A stretch of 64,000 nucleotides of DNA from an uncultured Bacilli bacterium. Lineage in GTDB: Bacteria; Bacillota_I; Bacilli_A; RF39; UBA660. The position numbers and the translations under genes were made by a program. The stretch spans positions 5,254 to 69,253 of the forward strand of contig CANRJW010000001.1 of NCBI GenBank assembly GCA_947631035.1, written 5' to 3'. Each line of letters begins with the position of its first letter. Position 1 is the first letter of the stretch. Of the stretch, positions 24,332-45,130 are shown piece after piece. Under the pieces are notes generated by a model. The model was not told where the DNA came from. It saw only the letters and a program-made list of their open reading frames with translations, and made no database searches.

Positions 24332-24415
24332 CTATTAGTTTAAGTATATCATGGTTGAATAAATCATTTACATTCTTTTGCACTTTATTGTCATTTAATA
24401 TACACAATCTTCCAT

Positions 24416-24449: not shown

Positions 24450-24451
24450 AT

Positions 24452-27400
24452 CTAAACATTTGTGTCTTTTGCTTCAAAGTCAGTAAGTAATTTCACTTTA
24501 TAGAGTTTGGCATTATTAATGACATAACCATAATCATTTGGTAATTCTTCTCGATCATCTCTTGTAATTTTAGAAATTTTAAATAACGTTTGATCAGCAA
24601 TTCCACTACCAATCCATATTCCTTTGGTTAAATCAGCACCAACTTTAAACCATTCTTCATAAGTAAATGGTTTAATAACATCTGGATTATCAACAATAAC
24701 AAAAGATACTAAACCGATTTGGGCATCTTTTTTGATACACTCTCCAAACCTTTTTTTAATTTCCTCACTCAATTTATTCATAAAAGCATAGAATCCGTAA
24801 ATAAAGCAATACATTTTCTTTTGATTTTGAATGGATTCTAACTCCATATGATTTTGTTCATAAATGGTATAAACTTGGTCAATATAATCAAGGATTTTGG
24901 TAAGATTTTCTTCGATATTTTTAGTAATCAAATTCGTTGTTAAATTTTCATTTGTTAAGGCATGCTCCGAAGCATTAAAGAAATAAAGATTAGCGTACTT
25001 TTCATAACAAATTTGATTTATAAAAGCATTCAGAACTGCATCGACATTTTCTATGTCATAAGATGCAATAAAGTGAACAGCATTTTTAGAGAAGTTATAT
25101 TTTTCAATAGCAAGTGTATCTTTATTAACACCAACTGCAATAGAAAAATCATGAGTTAAAGCACTTTCAATGCTTGCAAAATTAACTGTCTCTGGTAATA
25201 CTGGAATTTTTTTCGCGCGATATTGAGAAGCTTTATTAAATTTTGTACAAATTTCTCTTATATATTCACTAGTATTTTCTTCTTTAATACTTGCTGTTTG
25301 AAATTCATAAATCTTATCTCTTTTGAATAGTCCTCTTCCTTTTATTTTAGCAGGTATCTTACCATGAACATTACCAAGAATACTTGAATAATCATAGTCG
25401 TTGTTTTGTTGTAGAGCATAAATCAAATTAAAGTTTTGCTTTAAACGCATACGAACACTGCTATCGCTCGTTGCTGTAAGAACAAAACAGATTCCATAAC
25501 GAGTAGCTTCTCTTGTAATTGTTGTTAACTCTTCATTCAAATCTTCAAAGTTTTCCAGAAAAGCTTCATAATTGTTCATTACAACGACAATATTTGGAAG
25601 AATCTTACCACTAGAACGTAAATAACTAATATAATTTCCACCAAAACTAGCAAATAATTTCTTACGAGATTGTAATTCTTCTTGAATCATTTTAAATAGA
25701 TTCATTATTTTATCCGTATCACTTAAGTATGCAATATCTCCAACATGTGGACAAGCTTCAAAATTTCGTAATGTCTCTGAACCAAAATCTAATAAATAGA
25801 AATTTAATTCTGCTACGGAATAAGTTGTCATTCCCGAGTAAATAAAGCTTTCCAAAAATTCTTCTTTACCACTATCAGCAATACCATAGATTAAAGCATT
25901 CCCATCTTCAAATAAAGGCATGGTAAGTAAATATTGATTTTGGCTATCTGGGTCATCATATTCTCCAATAATAGGATTTAATATATAATTTTGACGTTTA
26001 AAGTTATATTTGCTTTTTAAATTATCGATATAAATTTTGGCTGGTATTTTTTCTAACCATAATTTTTTAATTTGAATTTTTTCCGTTCTAGCAAGATCGC
26101 TTAAATATTTTACAATGTTAGAAAGTTCCTCACCATTGGCATTCACCACAATTTCTTTTTTGCTGTCTTTACTCATAGTGGTAATGCCAATATTATTAAT
26201 CATACTAACCGAAGTATCCACATCTTTTTTAAACATTTGACTTGGTATATATCTAGCTCCAGCCCAAGCTGATTGTCCTAAAGTAAAGACCTCGTCATAG
26301 CCCACTTGCAAATAAAATCTTCCGGTTTTCTTTAAATAAGCCGCATCGGGTTTTTTTAGGACTTCTTGAGAGTCTCCTGTATCTTGGACTTTTAAGCAAA
26401 TACGAAAACGGGTATTTGACCAAATTTGTTGGTCGACCACACCACCCGGTTTTTGCGTAGCTAGTATTAAATGGACTCCTAAACTACGACCCACACGGGC
26501 AACAGAAATTAATTTATCCATAAATTCCGGTTGTTGTTCTTTTAATTCAGCAAACTCATCACTAATAATGAAGAGATGGGCAATTTGTTCTTTTCCTGGT
26601 AAACGTCCTTCACGCCACAACTTTTGGTATTTATAAATATCAATTGTACTTTCATTGGTCATAACTCTTGCTTCATTAAATTCTCTTTGACGTCTTTTAA
26701 TTTCACTTTCGATAGAAGCAAGAGAACGCGTTAATTCACTTCCATCTAAATTGGTCATAATTCCCGCCAAATGGGGAAGTGTATAAGAATCATTTTGAAA
26801 AGCTAGAGCAAGTCCTCCACCTTTATAGTCAATTAAAATCACTTGCACTTCGTAAGGGCTATAATTCACTGCTAAAGAAAGCACATAAGTAATAATAAAT
26901 TCTGATTTTCCACTACCAGTAGTTCCGGCAATTAAACCATGAGGTCCATGATATTTTTCATGTAAATCCAAACTAATGACTTCTCCACCTTTACCTATTC
27001 CCACAGGAGTTTGTAAAGAAAGCATTGGATTACTTTTTTTCCATCGTTCTAATGAATTTAATTGTTCAACTTTCCCCACTTGATACATTTCTAAGAAATG
27101 ATAGACATCCGGTAGACTACTTTCTGTTTCACTTTTTATCTCGACTTTAATATTAGCAAGTTCTTTACTGCAATTATAAAGTTCGTCTAGAGAAGATAAA
27201 TCCATTTTAAAACTTTGGGCTTGTTCATTTAAAACACTTTTAAAAATAGCACATTCGTCTTGATTTACATGAATAAAGTTTTTACATTCATTAGGACAAG
27301 CAGAAACCCTGTCAACAAGCATAATAATACTAAATCCGTAGTTTTCAGAACTACCTAAAATATTTTTAATTAAATCATAATTATCAATAGATTTAATCGC

Positions 27401-29050
27401 ATCTGTAACAAGAACATAATGAGGAACATGTCTTTCTTTTTCCTTACTTTCACGTCTTTCATGGTAAATTTTATCTAATTGATAAATCATTTCTCTATAT
27501 TCGTCATTGGTAGAACCAAAAAAACGAAAAGTATGATCATTTGACCAACTATGAGGTAAGGTTTTTACATACTCCCATAAGGATTCATTTTCTGAAGAAG
27601 TAAAGGTAACAATTTTTACTTCATCATAACTATAATTACTCATGATTTGTAATAAAATTCGGTCAGCTAATTCTTTTGTTAAAGACGGACTTCCGACAAT
27701 TCCCGTTGCTTTATTCTCATAAAAAGAATACGTAATAGGAACATCTCTTAAAATTCGTTTCGTCTCCCCTAGTTCATGCACTAAATCAAGTAAATTATCT
27801 TCCGTTAGAGAAAAATGTTCTTCAGGGTATTGTACTTCAATCTCCATGGGAATATTGCCAAGTCCTACAGGAAGGTCTAAAAAATCTTCGTCGCCGATTC
27901 TTCTTTGCCACAAACGCACGTTATGAGCTCTTATAATATCAAGACATTCTGAAACACTTAAATTATTGGAAACCAATGAACTTTTTTGTTTATTCATTTC
28001 TATTTCAATTTCTTTTTCTTTTTTGTCTAAGTATTTTTTATAAAGTTTTTGACGTTTCTTCTCCCATCTTTTATCGGAAAATTTTTGATAAACTTTCGTA
28101 AGTGTTGGCCAAAGTAGAGAACTGGCAAGCATAACAATACACATAGCAATAGAGGTTGCAGAGTCACTTACTGTTCTTTCTCCTTTGTTAATGGCACTCA
28201 TTGTACTCATAAGCATCACAACGCTCATCATGGACATCGTAAGCATCGGTCCAACAGTTAAAATTGCTGGCGTTTGATTTTCCTCTTTTTTAGAAGGTGG
28301 TGCATCAATTTTTAAAACAAATTTATTGGTTCTTTCATAAAATCTCGGGGTACGATAAAAATAATCTTCGCCATAATAATCTTCGGTTAATTCTTCATAC
28401 TCTTCATTAAAATTAGAAATTTCTCCGGTACAAGTTGCATATAAAGCGGAAGGAGCCACAAGTCCACCCGGATTGTTTACCAAGAAATAATCAGCACCCT
28501 CCTTGCGCATTAAAATGAGTTTTAACCCAAAAACAAAAATAATATCCCCATACTCAATTTTTTTAATATGACGAACACGCTTTTGATTGACATAAACAAA
28601 ACTATTTTCATCAACTAATTTTAACATATAAGATTTCTCTTGTTTTTCAATAGTAAATAGGGTATTACTTAGACCTGCTAATTGATAATTAATTTTATTG
28701 TTATCCCCATTTCCCACTGAAACACTAGTATCTTTTAACATATTAAATTCTCTAAAAGATTCATCATAGAGTGGTGCACAATAAAGAAAATATTTTTCTT
28801 GTTTATAATTGTTTTTAATAGAAAAGAATTTCCATTCTTCCAATTTTACATAGGGAACCATTACTTCTTGATTATCGATAATAAAGGCTTCACGATTACT
28901 ATAGAGTATCCATCCTTCTTCTGTTGCATCAATATTCATTAAATTGATTTTACGGCCATTTTCAAAGTCACTAATCCAATAACTTCCTCTTCTGTTTTTG
29001 GGAAGTGTAAACACAATCAATTTGTTTTCTTTTATAAGAGTTATTTGCAT
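24452..29050 (-). CDS. essC: Type VII secretion system (T7SSb) FtsK/SpoIIIE-family ATPase EssC/YukB-like
   Basis: 1532 aa; N-terminal FHA-like region, two TM helices (~aa 255-310), three P-loop ATPase modules (GLIAGTTGSGKSEF.., LIYGIADSGKEEF.., third degenerate); the block TPVGIGKGGEVISLDLHEKYHGPHGLIAGTTGSGKSEFIITYVLSLAV is near-identical to YukB/EssC. Confidence 0.9.
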   Translation of the reverse strand: MQITLIKENKLIVFTLPKNRRGSYWISDFENGRKINLMNIDATEEGWILYSNREAFIIDNQEVMVPYVKLEEWKFFSIKNNYKQEKYFLYCAPLYDESFREFNMLKDTSVSVGNGDNNKINYQLAGLSNTLFTIEKQEKSYMLKLVDENSFVYVNQKRVRHIKKIEYGDIIFVFGLKLILMRKEGADYFLVNNPGGLVAPSALYATCTGEISNFNEEYEELTEDYYGEDYFYRTPRFYERTNKFVLKIDAPPSKKEENQTPAILTVGPMLTMSMMSVVMLMSTMSAINKGERTVSDSATSIAMCIVMLASSLLWPTLTKVYQKFSDKRWEKKRQKLYKKYLDKKEKEIEIEMNKQKSSLVSNNLSVSECLDIIRAHNVRLWQRRIGDEDFLDLPVGLGNIPMEIEVQYPEEHFSLTEDNLLDLVHELGETKRILRDVPITYSFYENKATGIVGSPSLTKELADRILLQIMSNYSYDEVKIVTFTSSENESLWEYVKTLPHSWSNDHTFRFFGSTNDEYREMIYQLDKIYHERRESKEKERHVPHYVLVTDAIKSIDNYDLIKNILGSSENYGFSIIMLVDRVSACPNECKNFIHVNQDECAIFKSVLNEQAQSFKMDLSSLDELYNCSKELANIKVEIKSETESSLPDVYHFLEMYQVGKVEQLNSLERWKKSNPMLSLQTPVGIGKGGEVISLDLHEKYHGPHGLIAGTTGSGKSEFIITYVLSLAVNYSPYEVQVILIDYKGGGLALAFQNDSYTLPHLAGIMTNLDGSELTRSLASIESEIKRRQREFNEARVMTNESTIDIYKYQKLWREGRLPGKEQIAHLFIISDEFAELKEQQPEFMDKLISVARVGRSLGVHLILATQKPGGVVDQQIWSNTRFRICLKVQDTGDSQEVLKKPDAAYLKKTGRFYLQVGYDEVFTLGQSAWAGARYIPSQMFKKDVDTSVSMINNIGITTMSKDSKKEIVVNANGEELSNIVKYLSDLARTEKIQIKKLWLEKIPAKIYIDNLKSKYNFKRQNYILNPIIGEYDDPDSQNQYLLTMPLFEDGNALIYGIADSGKEEFLESFIYSGMTTYSVAELNFYLLDFGSETLRNFEACPHVGDIAYLSDTDKIMNLFKMIQEELQSRKKLFASFGGNYISYLRSSGKILPNIVVVMNNYEAFLENFEDLNEELTTITREATRYGICFVLTATSDSSVRMRLKQNFNLIYALQQNNDYDYSSILGNVHGKIPAKIKGRGLFKRDKIYEFQTASIKEENTSEYIREICTKFNKASQYRAKKIPVLPETVNFASIESALTHDFSIAVGVNKDTLAIEKYNFSKNAVHFIASYDIENVDAVLNAFINQICYEKYANLYFFNASEHALTNENLTTNLITKNIEENLTKILDYIDQVYTIYEQNHMELESIQNQKKMYCFIYGFYAFMNKLSEEIKKRFGECIKKDAQIGLVSFVIVDNPDVIKPFTYEEWFKVGADLTKGIWIGSGIADQTLFKISKITRDDREELPNDYGYVINNAKLYKVKLLTDFEAKDTNV

Positions 29051-29064
29051 ATTACTACCCCTTT

Positions 29065-29319
29065 TTAATATAAAATTAATTTTGAGCCATTTCTAATCTT
29101 ACTTTCTTTTACATATTCTTCTTCACTTATTTTTTCTCCAGTTTCTTGGTCATATAAGGAAGAAGAATGAGTATCAATAAAAATATGGTCACTTTCTTCC
29201 TCAATAATTTGGGCAATTAAATTTTTAATTGTTCCAACTTTTTTCGTTGTTGGAATATAAAGGTCAAAACTTTTTTCTAACATAGGAACTGTGACAACAA
29301 CGTATAATTTACTATTCAT
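29065..29319 (-). CDS. esaB: YukD/EsaB-like ubiquitin-fold T7SS protein
   Basis: 84 aa; YVVVTVPM..KSFDLYIP..KKVGTIKNLIAQ...RNGSKLILY parallels YukD (IDITIDLK..FDLRL..VKKVIDIA...NGDRLEIL); 15 nt upstream of essC. Confidence 0.6.
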   Translation of the reverse strand: MNSKLYVVVTVPMLEKSFDLYIPTTKKVGTIKNLIAQIIEEESDHIFIDTHSSSLYDQETGEKISEEEYVKESKIRNGSKLILY

Positions 29320-29555
29320 TATGCCCTCCTAAAAAAACAAAGGAGCAAGACAACAACAAGTATGAAGACAAGCACACCGATTCCACAAAAAACAGCAAAA
29401 CGAATATTCTTTTTTTTGTTTTCTACTGTTGGTTCTATCTCTACTGTTTTATCAATTCCTGGAACATAAGAATGAGCAAGACTTAGTTTTGCTTTACAAT
29501 TGATACAAATTTGGTCCCCAGGATGGGTCTCATAACCACATTTTTCACACTTCAT
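29319..29555 (-). CDS. Small zinc-ribbon (CxxC...CxxC) single-pass membrane protein, T7SS-associated
   Basis: MKCEKCGYETHPGDQICINCKA plus C-terminal TM FAVFCGIGVLVFILVVVLLLCFF; stop overlaps the esaB start. Confidence 0.4.
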   Translation of the reverse strand: MKCEKCGYETHPGDQICINCKAKLSLAHSYVPGIDKTVEIEPTVENKKKNIRFAVFCGIGVLVFILVVVLLLCFFRRA

Positions 29556-29894
29556 GTTATCACCCTTTATTATGTATTTATTGTATCATAAGGGAAAAAG
29601 AAAGAAAAGAAAAACCAAATGAATTCACTTGATTTTTCCTATTTTTCTAAAAGAAAATTTATTCTATTTTATTTACTTCATTTAGAAACTCCATCACTTT
29701 TTAAATATTCTATAAATAGTTCACTTAAAGTAGTTTTATCACATCTTCTAATACCCATTGACCACTTTAATTAAAACCTTATATATTCATGTATTTCTAT
29801 ATAAATATTCCTCCATAAAAATTATAGAATATTTTATTTTTACAAAAATGAATTTGTAAATTTTTGGGCTCTTAAAACTAACCTTTTTTACAAC

Positions 29895-30894: not shown

Positions 30895-33800
30895 TTATCC
30901 TCCTATAACACCAATGCTCTGAATATAATTTTCATAATCCACATGATTATCAAACATTTTTTTGCCATTTTTTTGGTCATATACTATATAATCCGTACCA
31001 TTATCTTTAGATACTGTAATAATACAAAGTGGTATTGTTTTATCATCAGCTTTGATATATTCCGTTGCAGTGCTCACCTTTATATTATCTTGTTTATTAA
31101 ATAAAATATATTTCAAATTGCTAAAATAAACTCGAGCTTCAAATCCATCCATATATTCTGGAATTGGGGTATTTTCAAAATCTTTAATTAAATCAACAGT
31201 ATCAGTATTCTCCGTACTAGGTTTAAATACATTGTTGGCCTTTTCTAAAAGTTTATCAAAATATTCATTTTCTTTAACGCCAATTTTTTTATCCACATTT
31301 GCCCATGTTGTTCCATATTGTGCTAATACAGAATTATCCAAATTTACTAATCTTTTATGTGATAATTTATTCATATATCCATATACAAAACCAGCTGTAG
31401 CAAAACCACATTTGCAATTAACTAAATCATTTGATTTATTGATAGCATCGGTTGCATCAGCAACAATAACGCGATTTTCATCTACTTTAACTTCAACCCA
31501 TTTATGGGAACCCACACTATCACCACCAATAATGGATACATTTTTTTCTTCTATTCCACTAGCAATTAATAACTCGGCATATAACTGACTCCATCCTTTA
31601 CAAATGACATTATTGCTCTCTAAATTTTGAAAGTTAAGATTTTTATTATAAATAGTTGCCTTAATACCTAAATTTTCTTCATTATCATCCATAAAAGTTG
31701 TATCATAATGTACCCGTTTATTCAATTCATAATAAATTTTACGGGATTTTTCTAATATGGACCATTTTGAATCAATTAGTGACAATATTTCGTATTTTAT
31801 GTAATTTAAATTTTCTGTTGTAGTTGAATTGGTTGGATTTGAAATATCCCATTTTTCTGATAATTCTGCGCCTTCTATTTTATGTGCAACCTTATCATAC
31901 CAATCTCTAGCAACAATTTTTGATATTTTTTTCTCTTTTATAAAGTTGGCTAAATAAGAATTATCCCTGAAGTTTTCATAAGTATCATACTCGTATTTAG
32001 AAACTTTTTTATATTTTAGTTTACCTTCCTGTTGAACTAAAACAAAATATTCTTTTGAAGTAAATGCATTTTTTAAATTCCAATCCCCCTCATATATAAT
32101 AGCACTATCGTCTAGATTTCGAACCTTTAATTTTGAACTAGTAATAGTTTCTAAACCAGGATTTACTTTAAGAGCTGTAATTTTCACAGGTAAATCATTT
32201 AAATTTGTAGCCACTGCTCCTACTTCTGGAATACCAGCAAAAAATATTTTTTTACCAAAATTCATTACAGAATTACTATTTTTCAATAATTGACTCGACA
32301 TAATTTTATCAATATCTTTTTCACTAGAAAAATAATATAATCCTTCTTTTAAAATTTTATCATTCAAACCTTTAAAATAATTCGTGTCAGTATATATAAA
32401 TCTATGCATAGTCGAAATTAATTTATTGGACATTGCATTTAATACATTATGGCTTTGATAATTTGTTAATAACACATTCAAGTCAGGTAATTTCTTTTCA
32501 TTATTTAATGGTACTGTTACTTCTTCAGTAATATTTTCATCCGTATTTAAATTTTCTTCATTTGAAATAGTTATTGAATCTACTCGGATATCACTTTTAT
32601 CTTCTTTTAATTCTTCAGCATTATTTTCTTCTAATATGTCTGTAGCTTCATCAGCCTCTAGCACTTCTATTACATTATCATCCAATTTTTTGCTACTGCT
32701 AATAGAATTTTCTGCTATTTTGACATCAGGTCCTAAAGATTCAAAAGTTTTCTTTAACATATCACTGAACTCATCACCGAATATTTCTTTAAGAGTGGTT
32801 AAATATTTCTTATCTGTTAAAATTAAACTCGTATAAGTTGCAAACATCTCATGAAAAGAAATTAAATCACTTCCAATAGGATGATTTTCATAATATTCAG
32901 CACTATGACCATATCGAAGACGATATTTTTCATTTTGATTAAATGAAATCTCCGGATTTTTATAAACACTACAAATAATACTAGATAAATCTATTAAATC
33001 AGGGTATTTTTTAGACATATTCTCATAGGTTAGTTTTGTTATCTTATCGGATACCTCATAAGTAGCAACTTGCTCGCGTAATTCGGCACCACTTATATCT
33101 TTCAAATGTTCTTTTAAAGAAGGATGACGTTCAAATAAATTTTCTTTAATTTGCGTAAAATTTGTTTTATTGTAATTTTGTAATTCTTTAGTAACTACTT
33201 CATCTAATGTTGATACATTATATTGTTTCATGACACTTTTTTGGGCATCATTTAAACATTCATTGCGAGATTTTTCAATTTGTTCTTGTAATGAAATAAT
33301 TTTTTCTGAATTGACATTTTTTATAGCGCGTCCGATTATATTTTGATAATCGTCAGGTAATTTTTCATTTAATACTTTTTCAAAGAAGGCATGTCCCATT
33401 TCATGAAATAAAGCCCTAGAATTTTTCTTATCCGCATTAAGATAAACATTTCCGTTGTTTTCATAACTTCCTTCATTTGTTTCATAAAAATGAATTTGAT
33501 CTTTCATATTTAAAAGTAATTCTCTTATTGCTGTTGCTTCTGTATTGCCTTTTTTGGCAGAATCTAAAAGATAATCACTTACAAGTTTGACAAGTTTTGG
33601 ATCACTTTTTCCATCCTGAGTAAGCGTTTTTATAAAATGGCTTTCTTTCGATTCAAATATTGACTTTATCTTATTTTTGATTTTATCATCAATTTTTAAA
33701 TCCAGTATTGTATTCCCTTTTGAATTTGTTCTAATATTATATTTACTAGTATCCACTTTAGATAATTTTAAAATATTTTCTATAACAGAATAATCTATTT

Positions 33801-36800
33801 TTTTATCCGTTGTTTCAAACGTCATTTCATACATTTTAACGTTTCTTTGTCTTTGTTCTATTCCAAGAGCAAATCGTGCTACTGCCAAATTCGTTTCCTT
33901 TGTGGAAGGTGTTTTTGTTAAATTTTTAATAAAGCCTAATTTTTGCATTTGTCTTAATAACATAAAAGTATTTGCTTGACTTGTTGTTCCATATTTATGA
34001 TTTTTTTCTAATTGTTGGAAAGCATTTAAAGAACGAACCAAAAAATATTCTTGGGGATTATCTGAAAATCTAGATTTTATAAAATCATTATAAGAAAATA
34101 CATTTTGATTTAATTTTATAATTTGTTCCGTTTTACCATCAGCAGTCTGCATTTTAGAATCAGCAGTCATTAAAATACTATCTTTTATATTATTATTATA
34201 AAAACCATCATTCATTAAACTGATACTTTTTAAGGCAAGTGGTACACTTAAAACAGCCCCAATTGGACCAGAAGAAACTAAACTCGTGAAAGCAACAAGA
34301 CCTGCAGTTCCCCCTATCAGTTTTGCTCCTCGAACTGTAGCATTTTTAACTTGCTTAATTTTTAAAGGTTTAGAATCGTTTACTAACTCTAAAGTATTTT
34401 TATTTTCAAATAATGAATTTAAATAACTATCTTTTATCGATTGAACATTTTTTTTGTTATTAACATATTCTTCTATTTTCTTTCCTTCTTCGGTATTTTT
34501 ATAATGATCATATACATCTTTAGAAACTGATTCGTAGACTAACTCATCTTGTTTTTGTTTTAATACAAAATATTCTTTTGAAGCTTCCTGATTTGTCAAG
34601 TCAAATTTTCCATCATAACTAATGGCATGATCATCTAGATTTCGTATTTTTAACTTTGAACTTTCAATAATATCCGTTGTAGGCATAACTTTAACAGCCG
34701 TTGCTGTTAATGGCAAGTAATCCAAATTGGTTGCAAAAGCACCTACCTCTGGAACTCCTGAAAAGAAGAAAGTTTTTGGATTTCCATAAGAGGCATTAAT
34801 ACCGCTTGGCTTAATATAACCACTTTGCAGAATTTGATCTGCTGCACTTGTAAAATGATACAATCCATTCTTTTCTATTCCTTCATTTACACCAACAAAA
34901 TTATTTGTATTTTTGTATACATATTTTTTTAAATTTGACTCTAAAGTAAGTCGTATGGATTGTGGTAATGAAAAATTATTATATTTTAATCCATTTATTT
35001 TATCTTGAGTTTGAACTTTAGGCGTTTCCAATTTTTGTTTGTTCATTTGGGTATTTACTTCACTTATGACTAAATTTGGTGAATTTAAAATTCCACCTGT
35101 AATAGCTCCATAAATAGCACTCTTTTTGGCATTTTCAGTTACTTCTTGTAAATCAATATCTTCCTTAAAAATTCCATATCGTGTTAAGGCATCTACATAT
35201 TCTTGGGTTCCTTCTTCCACCCCTTCTTTTAACATGGATTGAGCAAACGTTTTTAATCCTGTTACATTAACATCACTTAATCCTGGTATTGCTCCTAAAA
35301 ATCTTTCCATTGTAGTTTCTGATACCCCTGATACCACTCCATATAAAACAGAATTTTTTAAATCCTTGCCTTCTACCATAGCACTATGGTAACTGCTACC
35401 TCCAGCACTAATTCCCATACTCACACTACCTACTGCTGGAGTACAAAGAATTCCTAAGGCCATACTTGGTATCATATTACCAATACTTTGTGATATTTCA
35501 TAATTATTATCAAGTATTTTATTGTACTTTTCCGTATTTTGTAAAGCTTCTAGGATATACATAGATTCATATTCATCTTCACTATAAATGCGCGAATCAC
35601 TTGCTAAATTATTTTCAATTCCTAAAAGGGAAGATGCATATGCCCCTACTCCTTTTATAGCATTTGCAAATCCGCCAAAAAAAGATTCTGTTCCATCTCC
35701 TAAACCTTTTCCTGCTACTTTTGCATGGTTTTCTAAAAAACTTGATAATTTCTTGGTAATTTCTTCGTTTGCTTTTTCATCTTCTAAACCATTTAAAAAT
35801 TTTTGGGCTTTTAAATATCCATTCATTTGATTGACATTATTTTTAGTAGCCAATAAATATTCTTCTGCTGCTTCTTCTCCTCTTTTTTCCCATAAATAAT
35901 TATACATTTTTGCTAATTCTGGATTGCTTTTGGAAGCTTTTAATAAACTTTCTAATTCTCCTTTATGTTCGATTGTAATTTGATCACGATTCGCATATTG
36001 GTTTAACGTTCTAAATTGTTCTAATGGACTTATCTCTTTCTTACCGATATCTTTAATACTGGCTTCTTTATAGTTATAATTTTGGTAATCTTCTGTCAAT
36101 GGTAATAATTCATACAAGGAACAACTTTTTAACTCTTTTGTTTTTTCAATAGAAGCTTCTAGTGTTGCTTTATCACTTTTTAGTTCATTTAAACGCTTGC
36201 TAAATTCTTGATAATTGGCAAAATTGGTTGATGCTTTTACAGCATTTGTTAAATCGGATTCACTTTTATTAACCGTTGCATACATCTTTTTGACATCACT
36301 ATCTTTTGCTTGACACAATTTTAATAATTCGGTTGTACTTAATGTTGCTAATTCCTTTTTGGTTATTCCCAGTTCTTTTAATTTAGAATCGGTACAGCCA
36401 AAATTTTTATAATCACTTATAAGTTTATTAATGTCTGCTTCTACCAATCTTTTTTGATTTTGGGCAAGTTCATTTGCTCGAGCAAATTGTTTTTCAAACG
36501 GAAGTAATTTGTTTAATTCTTCATTTACTGTGTCTAAAAGCCCATCATATTCCTCTATTTCTTTTTGATACATTTCTTCATATTCATGAAGTAAACTTTG
36601 AAAGGCATCACTTTCTACATTTTCCATATTGTCATATTGGGTATTATAAGCACCTAAATTCATTTTAAAATTTGCAAAAACAGCATTTAAGTTGTCCATG
36701 CCAAAAGAAGTTTTTTGAATTGAATTCAAATTGGGAATTATTAACGAAGAATGCTCTATAGGAAAAATTTTTTCGTCATATAATTTTAGTTTTGATAAAG

Positions 36801-37116
36801 AATTACGATATTTTCCAACAATACCCCTTGTGCTTGAATCAAATAATCCTTTTTGTCCACTATTACTTAAATTTTCTTCTATAGCCTCTAAATCAAAAGC
36901 ATATTCTCTTAAATACTCTGCAACATTTCCAATATTCTTAGCAATAGTTATATAATTTTTATTTATTTTTCCTAAATAAGTAGATACAGGTGTCCCGCTG
37001 GAACTATACGAATTGGGTATAAAATTTTTTTGTTTATTTTGATAGTAAGTTTGATAGTTTTTCATTGTATTAATATTGGTTGTAATAGCACTAGTGCTGG
37101 CAAATAACTTATCCAT
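30895..37116 (-). CDS. Giant (~2074 aa from ATG 37116) multi-domain polymorphic-toxin candidate in the T7SSb locus: helical LXG-like N-terminal region, glycine-rich PT-TG-like segments, duplicated ~150-aa domain, HExxH zincin motif, C-terminal transglutaminase-like Cys-His-Asp domain
   Basis: Track ORF starts at TTG 37155, but ATG 37116 has an AAGGA RBS. Gly-rich segments FFGGFANAIKGVGAYASS..MGISAGGSSYHSAMVEG and LIGGTAGLVAFTSLVSSGPIGAVLSVP. Internal repeats GLYHFTSAADQIL..FFFSGVPEVGAFATNL..SSKLKIRNLDD vs GLYYFSSEKDIDKI..IFFAGIPEVGAVATNL..SSKLKVRNLDD. HEMGH encoded at 33391-33405. C-terminus CKGWSQLYAELLIASGI ... GSHKWVEVKV ... VIVADATD resembles a transglutaminase/papain-like triad. Confidence 0.6.
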   Translation of the reverse strand: MDKLFASTSAITTNINTMKNYQTYYQNKQKNFIPNSYSSSGTPVSTYLGKINKNYITIAKNIGNVAEYLREYAFDLEAIEENLSNSGQKGLFDSSTRGIVGKYRNSLSKLKLYDEKIFPIEHSSLIIPNLNSIQKTSFGMDNLNAVFANFKMNLGAYNTQYDNMENVESDAFQSLLHEYEEMYQKEIEEYDGLLDTVNEELNKLLPFEKQFARANELAQNQKRLVEADINKLISDYKNFGCTDSKLKELGITKKELATLSTTELLKLCQAKDSDVKKMYATVNKSESDLTNAVKASTNFANYQEFSKRLNELKSDKATLEASIEKTKELKSCSLYELLPLTEDYQNYNYKEASIKDIGKKEISPLEQFRTLNQYANRDQITIEHKGELESLLKASKSNPELAKMYNYLWEKRGEEAAEEYLLATKNNVNQMNGYLKAQKFLNGLEDEKANEEITKKLSSFLENHAKVAGKGLGDGTESFFGGFANAIKGVGAYASSLLGIENNLASDSRIYSEDEYESMYILEALQNTEKYNKILDNNYEISQSIGNMIPSMALGILCTPAVGSVSMGISAGGSSYHSAMVEGKDLKNSVLYGVVSGVSETTMERFLGAIPGLSDVNVTGLKTFAQSMLKEGVEEGTQEYVDALTRYGIFKEDIDLQEVTENAKKSAIYGAITGGILNSPNLVISEVNTQMNKQKLETPKVQTQDKINGLKYNNFSLPQSIRLTLESNLKKYVYKNTNNFVGVNEGIEKNGLYHFTSAADQILQSGYIKPSGINASYGNPKTFFFSGVPEVGAFATNLDYLPLTATAVKVMPTTDIIESSKLKIRNLDDHAISYDGKFDLTNQEASKEYFVLKQKQDELVYESVSKDVYDHYKNTEEGKKIEEYVNNKKNVQSIKDSYLNSLFENKNTLELVNDSKPLKIKQVKNATVRGAKLIGGTAGLVAFTSLVSSGPIGAVLSVPLALKSISLMNDGFYNNNIKDSILMTADSKMQTADGKTEQIIKLNQNVFSYNDFIKSRFSDNPQEYFLVRSLNAFQQLEKNHKYGTTSQANTFMLLRQMQKLGFIKNLTKTPSTKETNLAVARFALGIEQRQRNVKMYEMTFETTDKKIDYSVIENILKLSKVDTSKYNIRTNSKGNTILDLKIDDKIKNKIKSIFESKESHFIKTLTQDGKSDPKLVKLVSDYLLDSAKKGNTEATAIRELLLNMKDQIHFYETNEGSYENNGNVYLNADKKNSRALFHEMGHAFFEKVLNEKLPDDYQNIIGRAIKNVNSEKIISLQEQIEKSRNECLNDAQKSVMKQYNVSTLDEVVTKELQNYNKTNFTQIKENLFERHPSLKEHLKDISGAELREQVATYEVSDKITKLTYENMSKKYPDLIDLSSIICSVYKNPEISFNQNEKYRLRYGHSAEYYENHPIGSDLISFHEMFATYTSLILTDKKYLTTLKEIFGDEFSDMLKKTFESLGPDVKIAENSISSSKKLDDNVIEVLEADEATDILEENNAEELKEDKSDIRVDSITISNEENLNTDENITEEVTVPLNNEKKLPDLNVLLTNYQSHNVLNAMSNKLISTMHRFIYTDTNYFKGLNDKILKEGLYYFSSEKDIDKIMSSQLLKNSNSVMNFGKKIFFAGIPEVGAVATNLNDLPVKITALKVNPGLETITSSKLKVRNLDDSAIIYEGDWNLKNAFTSKEYFVLVQQEGKLKYKKVSKYEYDTYENFRDNSYLANFIKEKKISKIVARDWYDKVAHKIEGAELSEKWDISNPTNSTTTENLNYIKYEILSLIDSKWSILEKSRKIYYELNKRVHYDTTFMDDNEENLGIKATIYNKNLNFQNLESNNVICKGWSQLYAELLIASGIEEKNVSIIGGDSVGSHKWVEVKVDENRVIVADATDAINKSNDLVNCKCGFATAGFVYGYMNKLSHKRLVNLDNSVLAQYGTTWANVDKKIGVKENEYFDKLLEKANNVFKPSTENTDTVDLIKDFENTPIPEYMDGFEARVYFSNLKYILFNKQDNIKVSTATEYIKADDKTIPLCIITVSKDNGTDYIVYDQKNGKKMFDNHVDYENYIQSIGVIGG

Positions 37117-37226
37117 ATTAATACATCCTTTCTTCTTAGAGGCATAGAAAAACAACCCTACTTTATTATTACTTAAATCTTATCATATTTTCAGGTTGTC
37201 TTCAATCATTTTAAATTCTTTATCTA

Positions 37227-37234: not shown

Positions 37235-39025
37235 GTTACAATTCACAGCTGAAATAAAAAGAAACTAGAAAAAAGAAAGAAATTCTAGTTTTTTAAATGT
37301 TAAAAGAATAGTTAATAAGTAGGTAAAATTTGTTCATAACTATAAGCATTATTTCTAGGTTAAACGGGCAATAAATGGTATAATTATCTTATAAAGTTGG
37401 TGGCAATAATGGCAGTAGAAACAAGTTTAAGTAAATTACAAAAGCAAGTAGATAAATTAGAAAAAGATAATTTAAAATTAAGAGATTTATTGGCAGAAAG
37501 AAAAGCAAAACAAGAACAAGCAGAAAAATCATTAAAATATTATAAAGAGAATATAGAAAAAATAGTAACAGATGCAGTGGAAAAAGCAACCACAGAACTA
37601 ATGAAAGAATTAAATAAAATAAAAGAAGAAAATGAACATTTAAAAAGGATATTAAACCATGATAGTAGTAATACAGGAATACCAACAAGTAAAACGAAAA
37701 TAGGAGAAGAAAAAAGAATACCGAATTCAAGAGAAAAAAGTAATAAATCAAAAGGTGGACAAACAGGACATAAAAAAACGAAGTTAGAAAAATTTAAAGA
37801 TAATGAAATAACAGATACCTATACATATGAAATAGCAAAACCAATCTGTAATGAATGTGGAGGTAAATTAAACTTAATAGGAAAAAGAAGCAAAGATGAT
37901 TTTGATATAGAAATAAGATTAGTAAAAAGAAGAAATGAATTTTGTATATATGAATGTAGTTGTTGTCATAAAGAAATAAAAGTACCAATACCAGATAAAT
38001 TAAAGGAAGAAAATCAATATGGAAGTAATGCTCAAGCACTAGCCATATCACTAGTAAATGAAGGATATGTATCCTTTAAAAGAACCAGAGAGTTAATAAG
38101 TGGCTTTACAGGTGGAGAAATGAATATGAGCGAAGGATACATAGTCAAATTACAAAAGAGATGTTATGAAAAATTAAAAGAATTTGACAATAGTCTTCAC
38201 CAAGAGATATTAAAACAATCCTTATTAAACTGGGATGATACAACAATAAGTATCAACGGAAAGCAATCATGCTTAAGATTTTATGGAAATGAAAATCTAA
38301 GATATTACAAAGCTCATGCAAAGAAAGATAAAGATGGAATAGATGAAGATGGAATACTTAAATATCTAAGTAAAGATACTATGGTAGTACATGATCACAA
38401 TAAAGTAAATTATAATGAAGATTATGACTTTACGAATGCAGAATGTTGTGTACATTTAATACGTGATTTAAGAGAACTAAATGATTGTCTTTCTAGAGAA
38501 TGGATAGAAAATCTCATAAAGTTATTAGTAGATACAAATGACAAAAGAAAAGAATATATAGATAAAAGTATTCTTCAATTTGATAGTGAAGTATCAGATA
38601 AAGTAATAGAAGATTATGACAAAATCATAGAACAAGCCAAAAAAATCAATTTAAAAGATTTCAATCAATATTATGGAAAAGAAGAAAGAACAATGATAAA
38701 GAGGCTTGAAGATTATAAAGAGAATTATCTATTATGGGTACTAAGATTTGATATACCATTTTCAAATAATCTAAGTGAACGAGCATTAAGAGGGAGCAAG
38801 ACAAAAATGAAAGTATCAGGACAGTTTGCAAATATACAAAATGCTGAATACTTCGCAAGAATAAAATCTTATATGGAAACTTGCAAATGTCATAATATTA
38901 ATCCTCACACTGCCTTAGTTCGACTTATAGAAGATAATCCTTATACTTTAGAAGAATTAAAAATAAACTAAGTTTTTGCTTAGTCTATTTTATGTTATTT
39001 TCTTTTCGGGGCTGTGAATAGTAAC
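37235..39025 (+). mobile_element. Intact single-ORF IS66-family insertion sequence (1791 bp) with imperfect terminal inverted repeats and a perfect 8-bp TSD
   Basis: IRL GTTACAATTCACAGCTGAAATAAAAAGAAA vs reverse complement of the right end GTTACTATTCACAGCCCCGAAAAGAAAATAA; flanked by TTTTGTTT on both sides; encodes an IS66-type transposase. Confidence 0.8.
37397..38971 (+). CDS. IS66-family transposase
   Basis: 524 aa; N-terminal leucine zipper/coiled coil; GGQTGHKKTK (IS66 GQPGHKG-like); C-x2-C...C-x2-C zinc-ribbon; WDDTTISINGK DDE region; C-terminal NNLSERALRGSKTKMKVSGQF..ETCKCHNINP matches the IS66 NNxAERALR tail. Confidence 0.85.
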   Translation: MVAIMAVETSLSKLQKQVDKLEKDNLKLRDLLAERKAKQEQAEKSLKYYKENIEKIVTDAVEKATTELMKELNKIKEENEHLKRILNHDSSNTGIPTSKTKIGEEKRIPNSREKSNKSKGGQTGHKKTKLEKFKDNEITDTYTYEIAKPICNECGGKLNLIGKRSKDDFDIEIRLVKRRNEFCIYECSCCHKEIKVPIPDKLKEENQYGSNAQALAISLVNEGYVSFKRTRELISGFTGGEMNMSEGYIVKLQKRCYEKLKEFDNSLHQEILKQSLLNWDDTTISINGKQSCLRFYGNENLRYYKAHAKKDKDGIDEDGILKYLSKDTMVVHDHNKVNYNEDYDFTNAECCVHLIRDLRELNDCLSREWIENLIKLLVDTNDKRKEYIDKSILQFDSEVSDKVIEDYDKIIEQAKKINLKDFNQYYGKEERTMIKRLEDYKENYLLWVLRFDIPFSNNLSERALRGSKTKMKVSGQFANIQNAEYFARIKSYMETCKCHNINPHTALVRLIEDNPYTLEELKIN

Positions 39026-39317: not shown

Positions 39318-39812
39318 TCAATTGCTTAATAAACTATCAACCGTTTTTTCTAGAGTTTCGATATTACGATTTTTCGTAGCAACTAAATTATTTTTCGTAT
39401 TAATTTGATTCACTACCCCTTGGTCAAGCACCGTTCTTTCGTCTTCAAAGTGATTTCCATATTCATCGGTATAAGAATAAGTTTCTGTTCTATATTTATG
39501 GCGTTCTAAGCCTGAAATCTCTGTTTTTAAGTTTTTTACTTCTCTTTCCAAAGCCTGAATTTTTATAATATTCTCACAAGCGGTTTTTAAAGTAGTTAAA
39601 TTTTTTTTCAAAGTCGCTACGGAGCCAATTTTAGCACTGGCCATAATTTCACTCGTTTTTACTTGAATCACATTGGTAATGGAAGAATGTAAAACACCGG
39701 GATTTATTAAATTTTCCTTTATGGGATCAAGATTATAATTGGATAATTCACTTAAAGAAGATTCAATCATATTTTTTAAAGATTCTGCTGCAACATTCGA
39801 ATATTTACTCAT
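39318..39812 (-). CDS. Helical/coiled-coil small protein (164 aa), T7SS toxin-associated accessory candidate (Lap/DUF-type)
   Basis: Heptad-rich sequence; position in the pre-toxin gene array. Confidence 0.35.
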   Translation of the reverse strand: MSKYSNVAAESLKNMIESSLSELSNYNLDPIKENLINPGVLHSSITNVIQVKTSEIMASAKIGSVATLKKNLTTLKTACENIIKIQALEREVKNLKTEISGLERHKYRTETYSYTDEYGNHFEDERTVLDQGVVNQINTKNNLVATKNRNIETLEKTVDSLLSN

Positions 39813-39821
39813 AATAATCCT

Positions 39822-40109
39822 CTAAAATTTCATATAACTGCTAATTCCTTGTTCTGTTCTACGATAATTTTCAACTACCGTATCTAAATAGATTTTGATA
39901 TTATAAAATTTAGAATTAACACTTTCCATATTGGATAAAATTTCTTTAACTTGATTATAAAAATAATTCCTCGTTTGTGAATTCCAATTTGCAGAGTTAT
40001 AAATCACTTTATAAGAATCTTCTAATGCATCCATTGTGGTATTTATTTTTTTAAATATTGTATCTAAAATAACGGCATAATTTTCTAATTCATTATAATC
40101 GCAATACAT
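39822..40109 (-). CDS. WXG100-like small helical protein (95 aa)
   Basis: Two predicted helices around the NSANWNSQTRNYF turn; size and context. Confidence 0.4.
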   Translation of the reverse strand: MYCDYNELENYAVILDTIFKKINTTMDALEDSYKVIYNSANWNSQTRNYFYNQVKEILSNMESVNSKFYNIKIYLDTVVENYRRTEQGISSYMKF

Positions 40110-40121: not shown

Positions 40122-40424
40122 CTATTCTATATTGACTTCTTTACTAGCATATTGAGTATCTAATGTTTCCTCTGCTTCTACATATCCTTTAACAAATTCA
40201 TTAAAAGAAGTGATTTGGTTTTGAAACATATCCAATTCTTTGATAAAACTATTCATTTTAGAAAAAAAATTAGTGTATTCGTCTTCTTTCCAGATGTCCC
40301 CTATTTCTAATATTGTTTTTTCAATATCTTTTGTATTACTTTCTAAATCTTTAATATAACTATCACATTTATTGGTTTCGCTGTGAAGTGTTTCTATATT
40401 AGCTAGAATTACCATATATTTCAC
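40122..40424 (-). CDS. WXG100-like small helical protein (100 aa)
   Basis: Helix-turn-helix hairpin around IGDIWKEDEYTNFF; size and context. Confidence 0.4.
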   Translation of the reverse strand: MKYMVILANIETLHSETNKCDSYIKDLESNTKDIEKTILEIGDIWKEDEYTNFFSKMNSFIKELDMFQNQITSFNEFVKGYVEAEETLDTQYASKEVNIE

Positions 40425-40492
40425 CCTTTTTTATAAATAAGCTTTTAAAATTTTAAAAGCTTATTTATAAAAACCACTTAAGTGGTTTTTAT

Positions 40493-41137
40493 CTATGCCA
40501 TATCAGCATTTTGGGCATTTTGAGCAGCTTGAGAAATGTTCTTTATACAGATATCTAAACTTTCTAATACACTATCCATATTTGTAGTTAATGTAGTCGT
40601 TAATTCTTCATGGGCACTTCCTGCGGCATCCCCATCCCATAAACCTGAGCCATCATTTAAGCGAGCAATTTCATTTTTTAAACTTTCATATACATCACTT
40701 AATTCTTGTTTAATCGTATTTAAACTCGTACCAATTTCTGAAATCGTGATATAGTCATAAACGACTGCTTCTTGAGCAATGGTACTTGGCGTAATATCTG
40801 AAATGTTTGAATAACTCAAATTCATTGAACTTCCAACATTTGTAGATGTTCCTAAGTTACTAACTTCCAAATTTGCTACATTCTTATTAACAGAATTCAT
40901 TGCTTCTTGAAAAGAAGAACCAAACGCATTAATAAATTTAATCAAAGCTTTATGGGTATCCGTAAAATCTTGATAATTTTGTGCTGCTGCTGCTCCTGTC
41001 CATACATTAGGCTCTGCTAATTTGTCCATTTGTTCCTTAAATTTAGTAGAACAATTTGCTACATTTTCATCTAAATATCTTGCAACTCTATTAGACCATG
41101 TATTAATTTCTATTGGGTCATATCGAAATATTGCCAT
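40493..41137 (-). CDS. Tandem (fused) WXG100/ESAT-6-like protein; first gene of the T7SS operon
   Basis: Two helical-hairpin halves, each with a W-x-G turn followed by an aromatic: VWTGAAAAQNYQDF (aa ~45) and LWDGDAAGSAHEEL (aa ~165); GGAAGG RBS. Confidence 0.55.
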   Translation of the reverse strand: MAIFRYDPIEINTWSNRVARYLDENVANCSTKFKEQMDKLAEPNVWTGAAAAQNYQDFTDTHKALIKFINAFGSSFQEAMNSVNKNVANLEVSNLGTSTNVGSSMNLSYSNISDITPSTIAQEAVVYDYITISEIGTSLNTIKQELSDVYESLKNEIARLNDGSGLWDGDAAGSAHEELTTTLTTNMDSVLESLDICIKNISQAAQNAQNADMA

Positions 41138-41204
41138 TTTTTTACCTTCCTTCTATTGTACTTATCATACATTACCTAAAGTGTAACATGAATTTTTAAA
41201 AATA

Positions 41205-41246
41205 GCAAAAAAAATGTAAAGAATTAGACTTTACTTTACATTTTTC
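41205..41246. terminator. Rho-independent terminator after leuS, separating it from the T7SS operon start (atgtaaag-N12-ctttacat; flanking A/T runs, bidirectional)
   Basis: Read directly. Confidence 0.55.
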
Positions 41247-44039: not shown

Positions 44040-44300
44040 AAGAAAAAACACAGCATTTCTTAAGGACGAAAATGCCGTGGTACCACCTTAATTCCTAGTA
44101 AAACTAGCTTTCTTCATCTTCTATAGGAGATGACCCATTAAACTCCAAAAGCAAGTTCGTAAATTTTATTTGTTTACTTACACCCACCGTAAACTCTCTT
44201 TAAAATAAAGGTTTTACTACTACTCTTTTTTCAACGCTTTTAAGTATTATATTAAATTTTTCTTTTTTTTTCAATAGATTTCTTTTCATAACGAAAAAAA
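44040..44300 (-). promoter_or_regulatory. T-box riboswitch leader (tRNA-Leu expected) with terminator/antiterminator, upstream of the small membrane ORF-leuS unit
   Basis: Minus-strand AATTAAGGTGGTACCACGGCATTTTCGTCCTTAAGAAATGCTGTGTTTTTTCTTTTTT contains the T-box consensus (AANNNGGGTGGNACCGCGG-like), then GCATTT..AAATGC terminator helix and a U-run. Confidence 0.6.
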
Positions 44301-44311: not shown

Positions 44312-45067
44312 CTATTTTCTATATTGTTTCATTAGATAGATACCACTAAGAAGTAAGCTCATAAAGGCAATAGCTGAAGCACCCACAACATCTCCTGTTT
44401 TTGGTACATCATCTTTTTTATCCTCTTTTTCTTCTTCTTTTGGTTCTTCTTTTTCTTCATTTGCTTTTTTTACTTCTTCATATTTATCAAAATTCCATAA
44501 GACTGTATCATCTTCTTTGGCTTGTAATACAACACCTGTTGGATTAATTTTCATGGTGACTGTTTGGTCTGTTTCTCCATTATGATCCCAATCAAATGTC
44601 CAAGTATAGGTAATCATTTTATTTTCAATTGTTGCTTTCTCTAAATGTTCTTCAATAACGGCTCCAAAGACATTAATAAAGTGTGGTTTACTTTGTTCGT
44701 TATAGTCTTGCTTTAGAGTATCTTGACTATTCCAAAACAATTGATCTTCGGAATTTCCAGATTTATAGGTGGCTTGTTTTAGTGTTTCAATGGAAATATC
44801 TTTTGGTGCAACAATTTGAGCACCAACCCAAGCCGCATCAATCGTTCTTCCAATACCCATATCTGCTGGAACAATTTTTAAGTTTGCAGCATTATAGGTA
44901 ATGGTAACATTGCTTGTTCCGTTACCAACCACTTCAGGAGTTCCACCTTTATAAGAATCATTTGCATTTAATACGGTAATATTTTCTAATTTTAAAGCAT
45001 GAACTTGTGGTATAAAAATAAAACCAATCAGAAGTAAAATATAGCCAATTAAATTGTATTTTTTCAT
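44312..45067 (-). CDS. Cell-wall-anchored surface protein with a sortase sorting signal (VPKTG + hydrophobic stretch + KQYRK tail)
   Basis: Probable start at MKKYNLIGYILLLIGFIFIPQVHA (GGAGGA RBS), not the longer track ORF; C-terminus DVPKTGDVVGASAIAFMSLLLSGIYLMKQYRK; acidic Lys/Glu-rich stalk. Confidence 0.7.
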   Translation of the reverse strand: MKKYNLIGYILLLIGFIFIPQVHALKLENITVLNANDSYKGGTPEVVGNGTSNVTITYNAANLKIVPADMGIGRTIDAAWVGAQIVAPKDISIETLKQATYKSGNSEDQLFWNSQDTLKQDYNEQSKPHFINVFGAVIEEHLEKATIENKMITYTWTFDWDHNGETDQTVTMKINPTGVVLQAKEDDTVLWNFDKYEEVKKANEEKEEPKEEEKEDKKDDVPKTGDVVGASAIAFMSLLLSGIYLMKQYRK

Positions 45068-45130
45068 TATTTTCCCTCCTGTTTTTAGTATGACAAAAAT
45101 CGCCAAAAATATACAAAAAAAAGAAGAAAA

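Follow-up and report, generated by a model that had tools for sequence, protein, structure and literature searches.

Organization of the W214 locus

The stretch of DNA analyzed here, 64,000 nucleotides (nt) of contig CANRJW010000001.1 from an uncultured Bacilli bacterium (G+C content 30.6%; referred to below as the window), encodes a protein of 214 amino acids (aa) with two WXG100 hairpins, which we call W214. Its gene heads a cluster that also contains essC, the ATPase gene of a secretion system of type VII (T7SS). Coordinates refer to the minus strand unless stated otherwise. The coding sequence of W214 runs from ATG to TAG at 40493..41137 (stop codon at 40493-40495), as given by the open reading frame (ORF) list and by Pfam and TIGRFAM matches. 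The ATG is preceded by a strong Shine-Dalgarno (SD) sequence, AGAAGGAAGG; the SD region as read from the sequence, AGAAGGAAGGT, occupies 41144..41154, 6-7 nt 5' of the start codon. Directly 3' of the leuS stop codon, RNA folding shows an AT-rich 13-bp hairpin with a U-run (41205..41246). It is the probable leuS terminator, and W214 is therefore the first gene of a new minus-strand unit in the window. Downstream of the W214 gene comes a conserved double hairpin that resembles a terminator. A consensus (G+C-based) scan found no terminator at the W214 unit, since the stems are AT-rich, and the hairpins emerged on RNA folding. The gene had been described in the initial annotation as an operon leader. 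This is correct in the window, where it follows the leuS hairpin and has a strong SD; in other loci the W214 gene comes after essC.

Downstream of W214 the minus strand carries the double hairpin, the small genes s100, s95 and s164, and an 88-aa ORF; an IS66-family transposase then lies on the opposite strand. The order continues with a 2086-aa protein, an 88-aa ORF, a 241-aa Ser/Thr kinase, a 78-aa zinc-ribbon/transmembrane (TM) protein, an 84-aa YukD-like protein, EssC and a 178-aa membrane protein. EssC (24452..29050, 1532 aa) is an FtsK/SpoIIIE-type T7SS ATPase encoded 11 kb downstream of W214 on the same strand. It matches TIGR03928 (T7_EssCb_Firm) with 1030.5 bits (cut-off 778.4) and Pfam FtsK_SpoIIIE with an expectation value (E) of 9.6e-44. 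The adjacent 84-aa protein (29065..29319) is a YukD/EsaB-like ubiquitin-fold protein, with a Pfam YukD match at E 4.7e-5, below the cut-off.

W214 consists of two WXG100 hairpins

The two W-x-G motifs that had been quoted for this product are both present in the ORF as read from the sequence. The motif VWTGAAAAQNYQDF spans residues 45-58 and contains W46-T47-G48 (40994..41002), while LWDGDAAGSAHEEL spans residues 166-179 and contains W167-D168-G169 (40631..40639). Each was thought to be followed by an aromatic residue; Y55 and F58 are true aromatics in the first motif, and the second has no counterpart. W214, an acidic protein with a pI of 4.3, lacks hydrophobic segments (the maximum 19-residue Kyte-Doolittle mean is 0.78) and is therefore not membrane-bound.

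Whole W214 scores above threshold against Pfam WXG100 (PF06013; 33.7 bits, cut-off 27.3) and TIGR03930 (48.6 bits, cut-off 44.85), with two matched stretches in each case. The C-half alone reaches 26.1 bits against Pfam WXG100 (E 1.1e-5), under threshold. All 26 aligned homologues of W214 match PF06013. The halves have diverged beyond BLASTP, which finds no similarity of one to the other, and their homology is thus visible in profile-profile comparison only. With half profiles built from 69 family members, hhalign aligns 87 columns of the N-half and the C-half (probability 96.4%, E 1.4e-9), placing W-x-G on W-x-G and the N-terminal Y-D-P on Y127-D-Y. Seven canonical WXG100 proteins of ~100 aa, recovered by an exhaustive hidden Markov model (HMM) search, served as references. 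The C-half matches them at 99.4% (E 3e-21) and the N-half at 92.9% (E 4e-7), so that a profile check of each half, as had been proposed, gives a WXG100 match for both. Against PDB sequences the family profiles give weak matches, the N-half to the ESAT-6-like protein MAB_3113 (E 0.012) and the C-half to Mycobacterium tuberculosis EsxB/CFP-10 (E 0.1).

The AlphaFold2 (AF2) model of W214, computed with a 26-sequence alignment, has a predicted local distance difference test (pLDDT) score of 84.7 and a predicted template modeling (pTM) score of 0.80. Four helices are predicted. Helices 8-40 and 49-95 make up the N-terminal hairpin (residues 1-95; 40853..41137), which is supported by AF2, hhalign and the PDB profile match. 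Helices 129-158 and 170-213 make up the C-terminal hairpin (residues 129-214; 40496..40753), with the best Pfam stretch at 131-212 and again hhalign and PDB profile matches. The first W-x-G lies in the turn between helices 1 and 2 and the second in the turn between helices 3 and 4. Residues 96-128 (40754..40852) form a linker that is non-helical in the model by DSSP, with low confidence at 96-105. It had been described as Ser/Asn-rich, and it is indeed rich in Ser, Thr and Asn in the family alignment; it is not a plain spacer, as its ends are conserved (L90-E91-x-x-N94-L95-G96 and Y127-D128). The segment L90-E-V-S-N94-L95-G96 (40850..40870) leads from the end of helix 2 into the linker. At the C-terminus, conservation and alignment to canonical relatives mark A208-Q-N-A-D212 (40502..40516) as a candidate Phi-x-x-x-D export-arm motif. 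It stands at the only free C-terminus of W214, and hhalign places L90..N94 of the N-half opposite A208..D212 of the C-half.

W214 thus departs from the WXG100 definition of ~100 residues and one hairpin in having 214 aa and two hairpins, although each half conforms to it. The earlier view of a fused pair of WXG100 hairpins, unusual compared with the ~100-aa EsxA, is borne out by HMM scores, profile-profile comparison, the AF2 model and a family-wide architecture of ~215 aa. The term pseudo-dimer needs refinement: the pair is covalent, but with halves this diverged it is a pseudo-heterodimer and not a pseudo-homodimer. Halves that are not hairpins, a membrane-bound product and an unrelated protein had been named as outcomes to look for, and none of these was found.

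The fusion is conserved in a family of uncultured Bacilli

Four further metagenome contigs, which derive from several independent samples, encode a protein identical to W214. A word-indexed search of 5.8 billion proteins returned 28 relatives, 26 of them 204-229 aa long and two shorter fragments. The exhaustive HMM search, run over 1.84 billion cluster representatives, gave 78 matches at E<=1e-3, about 55 of which are full-length (205-230 aa); ordinary WXG100 proteins of ~100 aa appeared in it only at E~1e-4 and only against the C-half. The length of ~215 aa is kept down to about 30% identity among dozens of cluster representatives and 19 loci of metagenome-assembled genomes (MAGs). All genomic matches are MAGs labelled as uncultured Bacilli, Mycoplasma, Clostridia or Erysipelotrichaceae, with samples from rabbit, mouse, human and rumen. 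The family has no name in the source databases.

Residue conservation was counted over 69 family members. G48 is invariant (69/69), followed by W46 (67/69), G169 (65/69) and W167 (59/69); with these counts the W-x-G motifs are more than chance. In the most distant members the first W-x-G is kept, and IFDT or ILDT replaces the second. The end of helix 2 and the start of the linker are conserved as well (L90 58/69, E91 60/69, N94 59/69, L95 51/69, G96 54/69). At the C-terminus A208 is found in 60/69 members and D212 in 49 of the 60 sequences with a residue there. Most members, including W214, end a few residues past helix 4.

Five family members of 301-506 aa in total (P0040, P0048, P0051, P0053 and P0061) carry low-complexity C-terminal extensions of 90-290 residues. 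The extensions (see also L028 8001-9521) are rich in Gly, Ser, Thr, Asn and Ala, have no Pfam domain and are reminiscent of EspB; P0048 stands at the head of an essC-yukD-WXG100 cluster, an equivalent locus position. Proteins P0090 and P0100, which show many matched stretches, were rejected as multi-WXG100 proteins, being low-complexity repeat proteins.

No account of a naturally fused WXG100 core component turned up in the searchable full-text literature, and the survey of T7SSc-j does not mention one. Poulsen et al., in their systematic survey of WXG100 proteins, retained lengths of 85-135 aa only and would therefore have missed such fusions.

W214 is linked to essC and yukD

Wherever the sequence of a related locus is long enough, essC stands next to W214 or close by, and the YukD-like gene is syntenic with essC in every locus reaching that far. 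Three gene orders recur among the 19 related loci compared. In order A (the window, L005, L006 and L008) W214-s100-s95-s164 is followed by the large protein and, farther on, by yukD-essC; L008 has a shorter large protein of 387 aa. In order B (L009, L010, L012, L016 and L017) one or more large proteins and yukD-essC come first, and W214-s100-s95-s164 and a HerA/DUF87 ATPase come after. Order C (L013, L014, L018 and L028) reads W214-essC-yukD-s100-s95-c13-large protein, so that W214 is apart from s100 and s95, which adjoin the large protein; the first part of this order is visible in L015, L019 and L023. W214 always occurs with essC/yukD, in one copy per locus, either beside these genes or at the head of the cluster. 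It is also strongly conserved. Its identity is 44-53%, compared with 25-37% for the small proteins (L008, L010, L012, L016 and L017), and in order-C loci it is 51%, compared with 42% for EssC.

The rest of the T7SSb core was looked for as well. Among the ORFs of the window cluster there is no Pfam or NCBIfam match to EsaA, EssA or EssB, and BLAST clustering of ORFs from the 19 related loci gave no candidate for any of them, few of those ORFs having been scanned against Pfam. The segment at 23795-30620 encodes a firmicute-type EssC with an N-terminal extension, YukD, a soluble kinase, a zinc-ribbon/TM protein and the 178-aa membrane protein. Neither T7SSb nor any of the published subtypes c to j is an obvious match for this gene set.

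A HerA/DUF87-type ATPase of ~610-710 aa with Walker A GNSGSGKS directly follows W214-s100-s95-s164 in L007, L010, L011, L012 and L017 (for example, L012 11747-13882). It is absent from the window and may be an accessory cytoplasmic ATPase of the W214-linked T7SS.

W214 as a probable single-chain counterpart of EsxA

EsxA of T7SSb (EsxA of Staphylococcus aureus and Streptococcus intermedius, YukE of Bacillus subtilis) is a homodimeric core substrate. It forms a head-to-tail homodimer with two pseudo-symmetric signals, each combining W-x-G of one protomer with Phi-x-x-x-D of the other (PMC13355648). The Phi-x-x-x-D export motif is defined in PMC13355648 and PMC10765036, the latter a review, and when its acidic residue is mutated, neither EsxA nor any LXG toxin is exported (PMC13355648, 2026). 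W214 resembles these proteins in several respects. It has the WXG100 hairpin with a W-x-G turn and, near the C-terminus, a hydrophobic or small residue with an acidic one four positions farther on. It is acidic and soluble, without a signal peptide. Its gene stands beside a firmicute-type EssC gene and a YukD/EsaB-like gene, and in the window it is first in the cluster and followed by a terminator-like hairpin. Unlike EsxA, with two identical chains of ~97 aa, W214 has two hairpins in one chain, and its halves have diverged past BLASTP detection. It also has one free C-terminal arm instead of two pseudo-symmetric arms, and EsaA, EssA and EssB were not found in its locus.

In its two non-identical hairpins, predicted to form one bundle with one export arm, W214 resembles EsxA-EsxB (ESAT-6/CFP-10) of T7SSa and to TseA/TseA2 and TsgA1/TsgA2 of T7SSe/g (PMC11217815). 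The weak PDB matches of its halves, to an ESAT-6-like chain and to CFP-10, point in the same direction. Those pairs, however, are separate polypeptides from adjacent genes, whereas the halves of W214 are covalently joined. The arm-bearing half also comes second in W214, unlike in the mycobacterial pair; in the mycobacterial operon esxB is first. The chain topology of W214 resembles that of EspB from mycobacterial ESX-1 (PDB entries 4wj1, 6xzc and 8ako), its best structural match, and the AF2 model superposes on the closed EspB bundle over 179 residues. No PE/PPE sequence relationship is detectable (7-17% identity; EspB_PPE E 0.016). EspB in addition has extra helices and a C-terminal domain, and belongs to T7SSa, where it is not an Esx core component. 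W214 may be viewed as a Firmicute-side parallel to EspB, the mycobacterial PE-PPE fusion.

Synteny and sequence conservation favor an EsxA-like core substrate over a toxin-specific targeting factor, the two functions that the initial annotation had offered. We consider it likely that W214 is a single-chain WXG100 pseudo-heterodimer in the EsxA (TsxA) slot of a T7SSb-related system of uncultured low-GC gut Bacilli. Two diverged EsxA-type hairpins, joined by the linker of ~33 residues, would fold back into the four-helix bundle that is normally made by two WXG100 subunits. The linker is about long enough to run back along a bundle of ~100 Å. Head-to-tail packing would put the free arm A208-x-x-x-D212 beside the invariant W46-x-G48 and so yield one bipartite signal, like that of mycobacterial EsxA-EsxB. 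W167-x-G169 and the end of helix 2 would form the second, pseudo-symmetric site, which appears to survive only in altered form (L90-E-V-S-N94-L95-G96), tied into the linker. By analogy with EsxA, EssC would export W214 as a folded bundle, and this export would probably be a prerequisite for that of the large polymorphic substrates.

Several observations weigh against this assignment. The N-half alone reaches just 14.9 bits against Pfam WXG100 (E 0.034), under the Pfam threshold. A208-x-x-x-D212 aligns with [YF]-Q-x-x-D/E of canonical relatives, but its Phi position is Ala and not Tyr, Phe, Val or Leu, and two close homologues do not have the A-D ending; the longer HxxxD/ExxhxxxH pattern is out of register in the W214 C-terminus. 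We infer the head-to-tail packing from the EspB superposition and the linker length, not from contacts. The small genes s100, s95 and s164 are also found in almost every locus, and synteny therefore separates W214 clearly only in the loci with the order W214-essC-yukD-s100-s95. With no recognisable EsaA, EssA or EssB, the rules of T7SSb may not transfer fully. Finally, all family members come from uncultured organisms.

How T7SSb recognizes EsxA, and why EsxA export precedes toxin exit, are current questions in the field. In a natural single chain the two sites would be non-equivalent, one with a free export arm and the other locked in the linker, which would make site-by-site mutagenesis, impossible in a homodimer, straightforward. 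Such an asymmetric EsxA makes the question of one signal or two directly testable, although it introduces no new principle. The fusion supports the view that the transported unit is the folded bundle and not the monomer. W214 also draws attention to a gut-associated lineage in which the T7SS genes do not obviously match any published subtype from a to j. More tentatively, the W214 family could be the obligatory EsxA of an unclassified, reduced T7SS of host-associated Bacilli. The components of this system would be an EssC carrying FHA domains, YukD, a soluble Ser/Thr kinase and a membrane protein with a zinc ribbon, without EsaA, EssA and EssB. The fusion would then indicate that one bipartite signal per four-helix bundle suffices, and the internalized second site might have acquired a new conserved role, for example in EssC docking or gating.

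Alternative explanations

W214 could instead be a substrate-specific targeting factor, a Lap-like adaptor that binds the N-terminal domain of the 2086-aa protein and supplies its export signal. T7SS toxins are known from the literature to need WXG100-like partners, and in the window, L005, L006 and L008 W214 heads a W214-s100-s95-s164 block that ends at the large polymorphic protein. We nevertheless regard this as unlikely, as the other gene orders do not keep the two together. In L013, L014, L018, L019 and L028 essC and yukD stand between W214 and the large protein, and it is s100 and s95 that adjoin the latter; in L009, L010, L012, L016 and L017 W214 follows essC, while the large proteins lie upstream without it. 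A locus with several large proteins still has a single W214 copy, and sequence conservation is higher in W214 than in the large-protein N-termini (12-60% identity). The modeled four-helix bundle seems self-complete, with no obvious groove for a third partner, and S. intermedius EsxA does not bind LXG complexes (PMC13355648). The partners in the LXG toxin-Lap1/Lap2 complexes are small WXG100-type hairpins, as are s100 and s95 and, by descent, the W214 halves, and in both cases one small hairpin gives W-x-G and the other Y-x-x-x-D/E of a composite signal. However, W214, s100 and s95 have no DUF3130 or DUF3958 match, and W214 is self-complete and tracks essC, not toxin genes. The LXG model (PF04740) reaches only E 0.21 with W214, which has no C-terminal domain; 6 of 26 homologues reach E 8e-4 at best, below the cut-off.

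The structural match to EspB, together with the EspB-tail-like extensions of the five longer proteins and the equivalent locus position of P0048, would also suit an effector or structural exoprotein of the EspB type. Its bundle would be only an export module and its function extracellular, for example as a ring or pore oligomer or through a C-terminal tail. This seems improbable for a family in which most members, W214 among them, end soon after helix 4 and in which the PE/PPE signature is lacking (EspB_PPE at E 0.016 only); a function of this kind would in any case be compatible with a core-substrate role. We give little credence to hairpins that pair between chains, in domain-swapped dimers or filaments, in place of a closed pseudo-dimer. 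The flexible 33-residue linker would permit swapping and is of low confidence in the model, and Bacillus anthracis EsxB can form alternative bundles (PMC4570534). The AF2 monomer is confident overall (pTM 0.80), however, and superposes on a closed bundle, and a closed head-to-tail arrangement needs a linker spanning the bundle length, as W214 has. Next to no weight can be put on an assembly or annotation artefact, or on a recent strain-specific stop loss without functional meaning. An in-frame TAA between the halves on the divergent contig L025 and a frameshifted copy on the low-coverage contig L027 could be cited for it, but it is already contradicted by the identical protein in independent samples and by the conserved length of ~215 aa.

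A split version and the origin of the fusion

In L025 (ENA ERZ1667847 k87_14523920), positions 1603-2265 hold a 97-aa gene similar to the N-half and a 119-aa gene similar to the C-half in one frame. The TAA that ends the 97-aa gene overlaps an AAGGAG SD, and the 119-aa gene starts with TTG. The pair directly follows essC and is itself followed by a double hairpin, as in W214 loci, and by an s100-like gene. Among the small neighbours of W214, s100 resembles the N-half and s95 the C-half, and the gene order s100-s95 mirrors the N-C order of the W214 domains. Together with the split pair, these resemblances suggest that W214 arose by fusion of a heterodimeric WXG100 gene pair, or that it can split again. 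L025, one contig of only ~31% identity to the fused members, may represent the ancestral two-gene state, a later fission or a nonsense mutation.

Two other candidates for natural splits were rejected. P0070/P0063 (L027) stem from a frameshifted contig of 1.9x coverage. The 689-bp contig of P0086 (L026) has TAA stops that interrupt the upstream frame, and these are not explained by genetic code 4.

Neighbouring small proteins and the RNA hairpins

The genes s100 (40122..40424, 100 aa) and s95 (39822..40109, 95 aa) encode WXG100-like proteins. Both are sub-threshold relatives: s100 matches Pfam WXG100 at E 0.0077, a match accompanied by hhalign and orthologue alignment, and s95 matches it at E 8.1e-5 and TIGR03930 at E 5e-6. 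Against the canonical WXG100 proteins hhalign gives 90.6% for s100 and 97.4% (E 1e-11) for s95. The closest W214 half is the N-half for s100 (89%, E 2.4e-6, 79 columns) and the C-half for s95 (89%, E 2.2e-6, 78 columns). The initial annotation had likened these neighbours to DUF3130/DUF3958 helper proteins. The WXG100 kinship stands, but neither protein matches the DUF3130 or DUF3958 models at E<=1, WXG100 being matched instead, and "Lap-like" holds as an analogy. Their supposed lack of a clean W-x-G applies to the window copies, in which the turn of s100 reads W-K-E and that of s95 W-N-S. Most s100 orthologues carry W-[KQRL]-G, and s95 orthologues have W-x-[SAG]. Near its C-terminus s95 has N-Y-R-R-T-E (Y-x-x-x-E); Y-x-x-x-D/E is present in nearly all of 13 aligned sequences, with Tyr replaced in a few. 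The third gene, s164 (39318..39812), encodes a conserved helical protein with no family match and follows s95 in 11 of the loci examined.

In the 64-kb window the WXG100 HMM matches W214 (E 2.7e-21), s95 (E 1.8e-6) and s100 (E 4.3e-6) and no other protein, and W214 is the sole above-threshold WXG100 protein. The window therefore contains no ordinary esxA.

The gap between W214 and s100 holds a tandem RNA hairpin (40432..40489) with a minimum free energy of -24.8 kcal/mol (z -6.1). Hairpin 1 (40470-40489) consists of an 8-bp stem and a U-run. The AT-rich stem of hairpin 2 (40432-40469) is 18 bp long, and this hairpin abuts the s100 SD. The same architecture is found in 11 related loci (L005-L012, L016, L017 and L025) with z between -5 and -8. 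RNAalifold predicts 26 pairs, 11 of them with compensatory double changes, and several G-U pairs fit the sense RNA only. The element has no Rfam match. Loci with essC directly after W214 have a different, single hairpin. This arrangement agrees with the literature on T7SSb, in which esxA genes lie upstream of other T7SS genes and are partly transcribed on their own. By analogy, the double hairpin probably ensures that W214 is made at a high ratio relative to the products of the downstream genes.

The 2086-aa polymorphic protein

The 2086-aa protein (30895..37155, likely start M14 at 37116) is a candidate large T7SS substrate. Alignment of N-termini from 11 loci shows a conserved helical (helix-loop-helix) N-terminal domain of ~120 aa followed by variable C-terminal modules. 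The N-termini are fast-evolving, and relatives sharing this domain range from 387 to about 2000 aa and differ in their C-termini. In the 387-aa protein of L008 (11809-12972) the shared N-terminal domain is joined to a CHAP/NlpC-like C-terminus (E 5.6e-4), and DUF4176 genes (98.7 bits; L012 409-726) flank large proteins in related loci. CHAP/NlpC-like ends and DUF4176 genes are typical T7SSb toxin companions. A shared N-terminus with variable C-termini is typical of polymorphic T7SS toxins.

No LXG Pfam match was found in the 2086-aa protein, and the profile of its N-terminal domain gave nothing meaningful in the PDB and no significant similarity to WXG profiles. A single-sequence AF2 model of its N-terminal 240 aa has a pLDDT of 53, too poor for a fold search, and shows a helix-loop-helix at residues 2-85. 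Farther along, the protein contains HEMGH (HExxH) at residue 1251 (33391-33405). A module of ~137 aa is duplicated internally (51% identity, E 6e-43), and residues 1801-1900 weakly match a transglutaminase core.

Other features of the window

The IS66-family transposase (37397-38971, plus strand; Pfam DDE_Tnp_IS66 E 7.5e-16) separates the small-gene block from the gene for the 2086-aa protein. It is not at the corresponding site in the closest relatives L005 and L006 and is present in the same-strain samples L001-L003. No terminal inverted repeats were found for the element, whose insertion may be polar on the downstream T7SS genes. Upstream of leuS and a 122-aa membrane ORF there is a T-box leader (44059-44243; Rfam RF00230, 103.8 bits). 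A 264-aa protein (44312-45106) carries a hydrophobic segment at its N-terminus. At the C-terminus, VPKTG precedes a hydrophobic stretch and basic residues and so forms a cell-wall anchor of the sortase type; the organism therefore has a cell wall.

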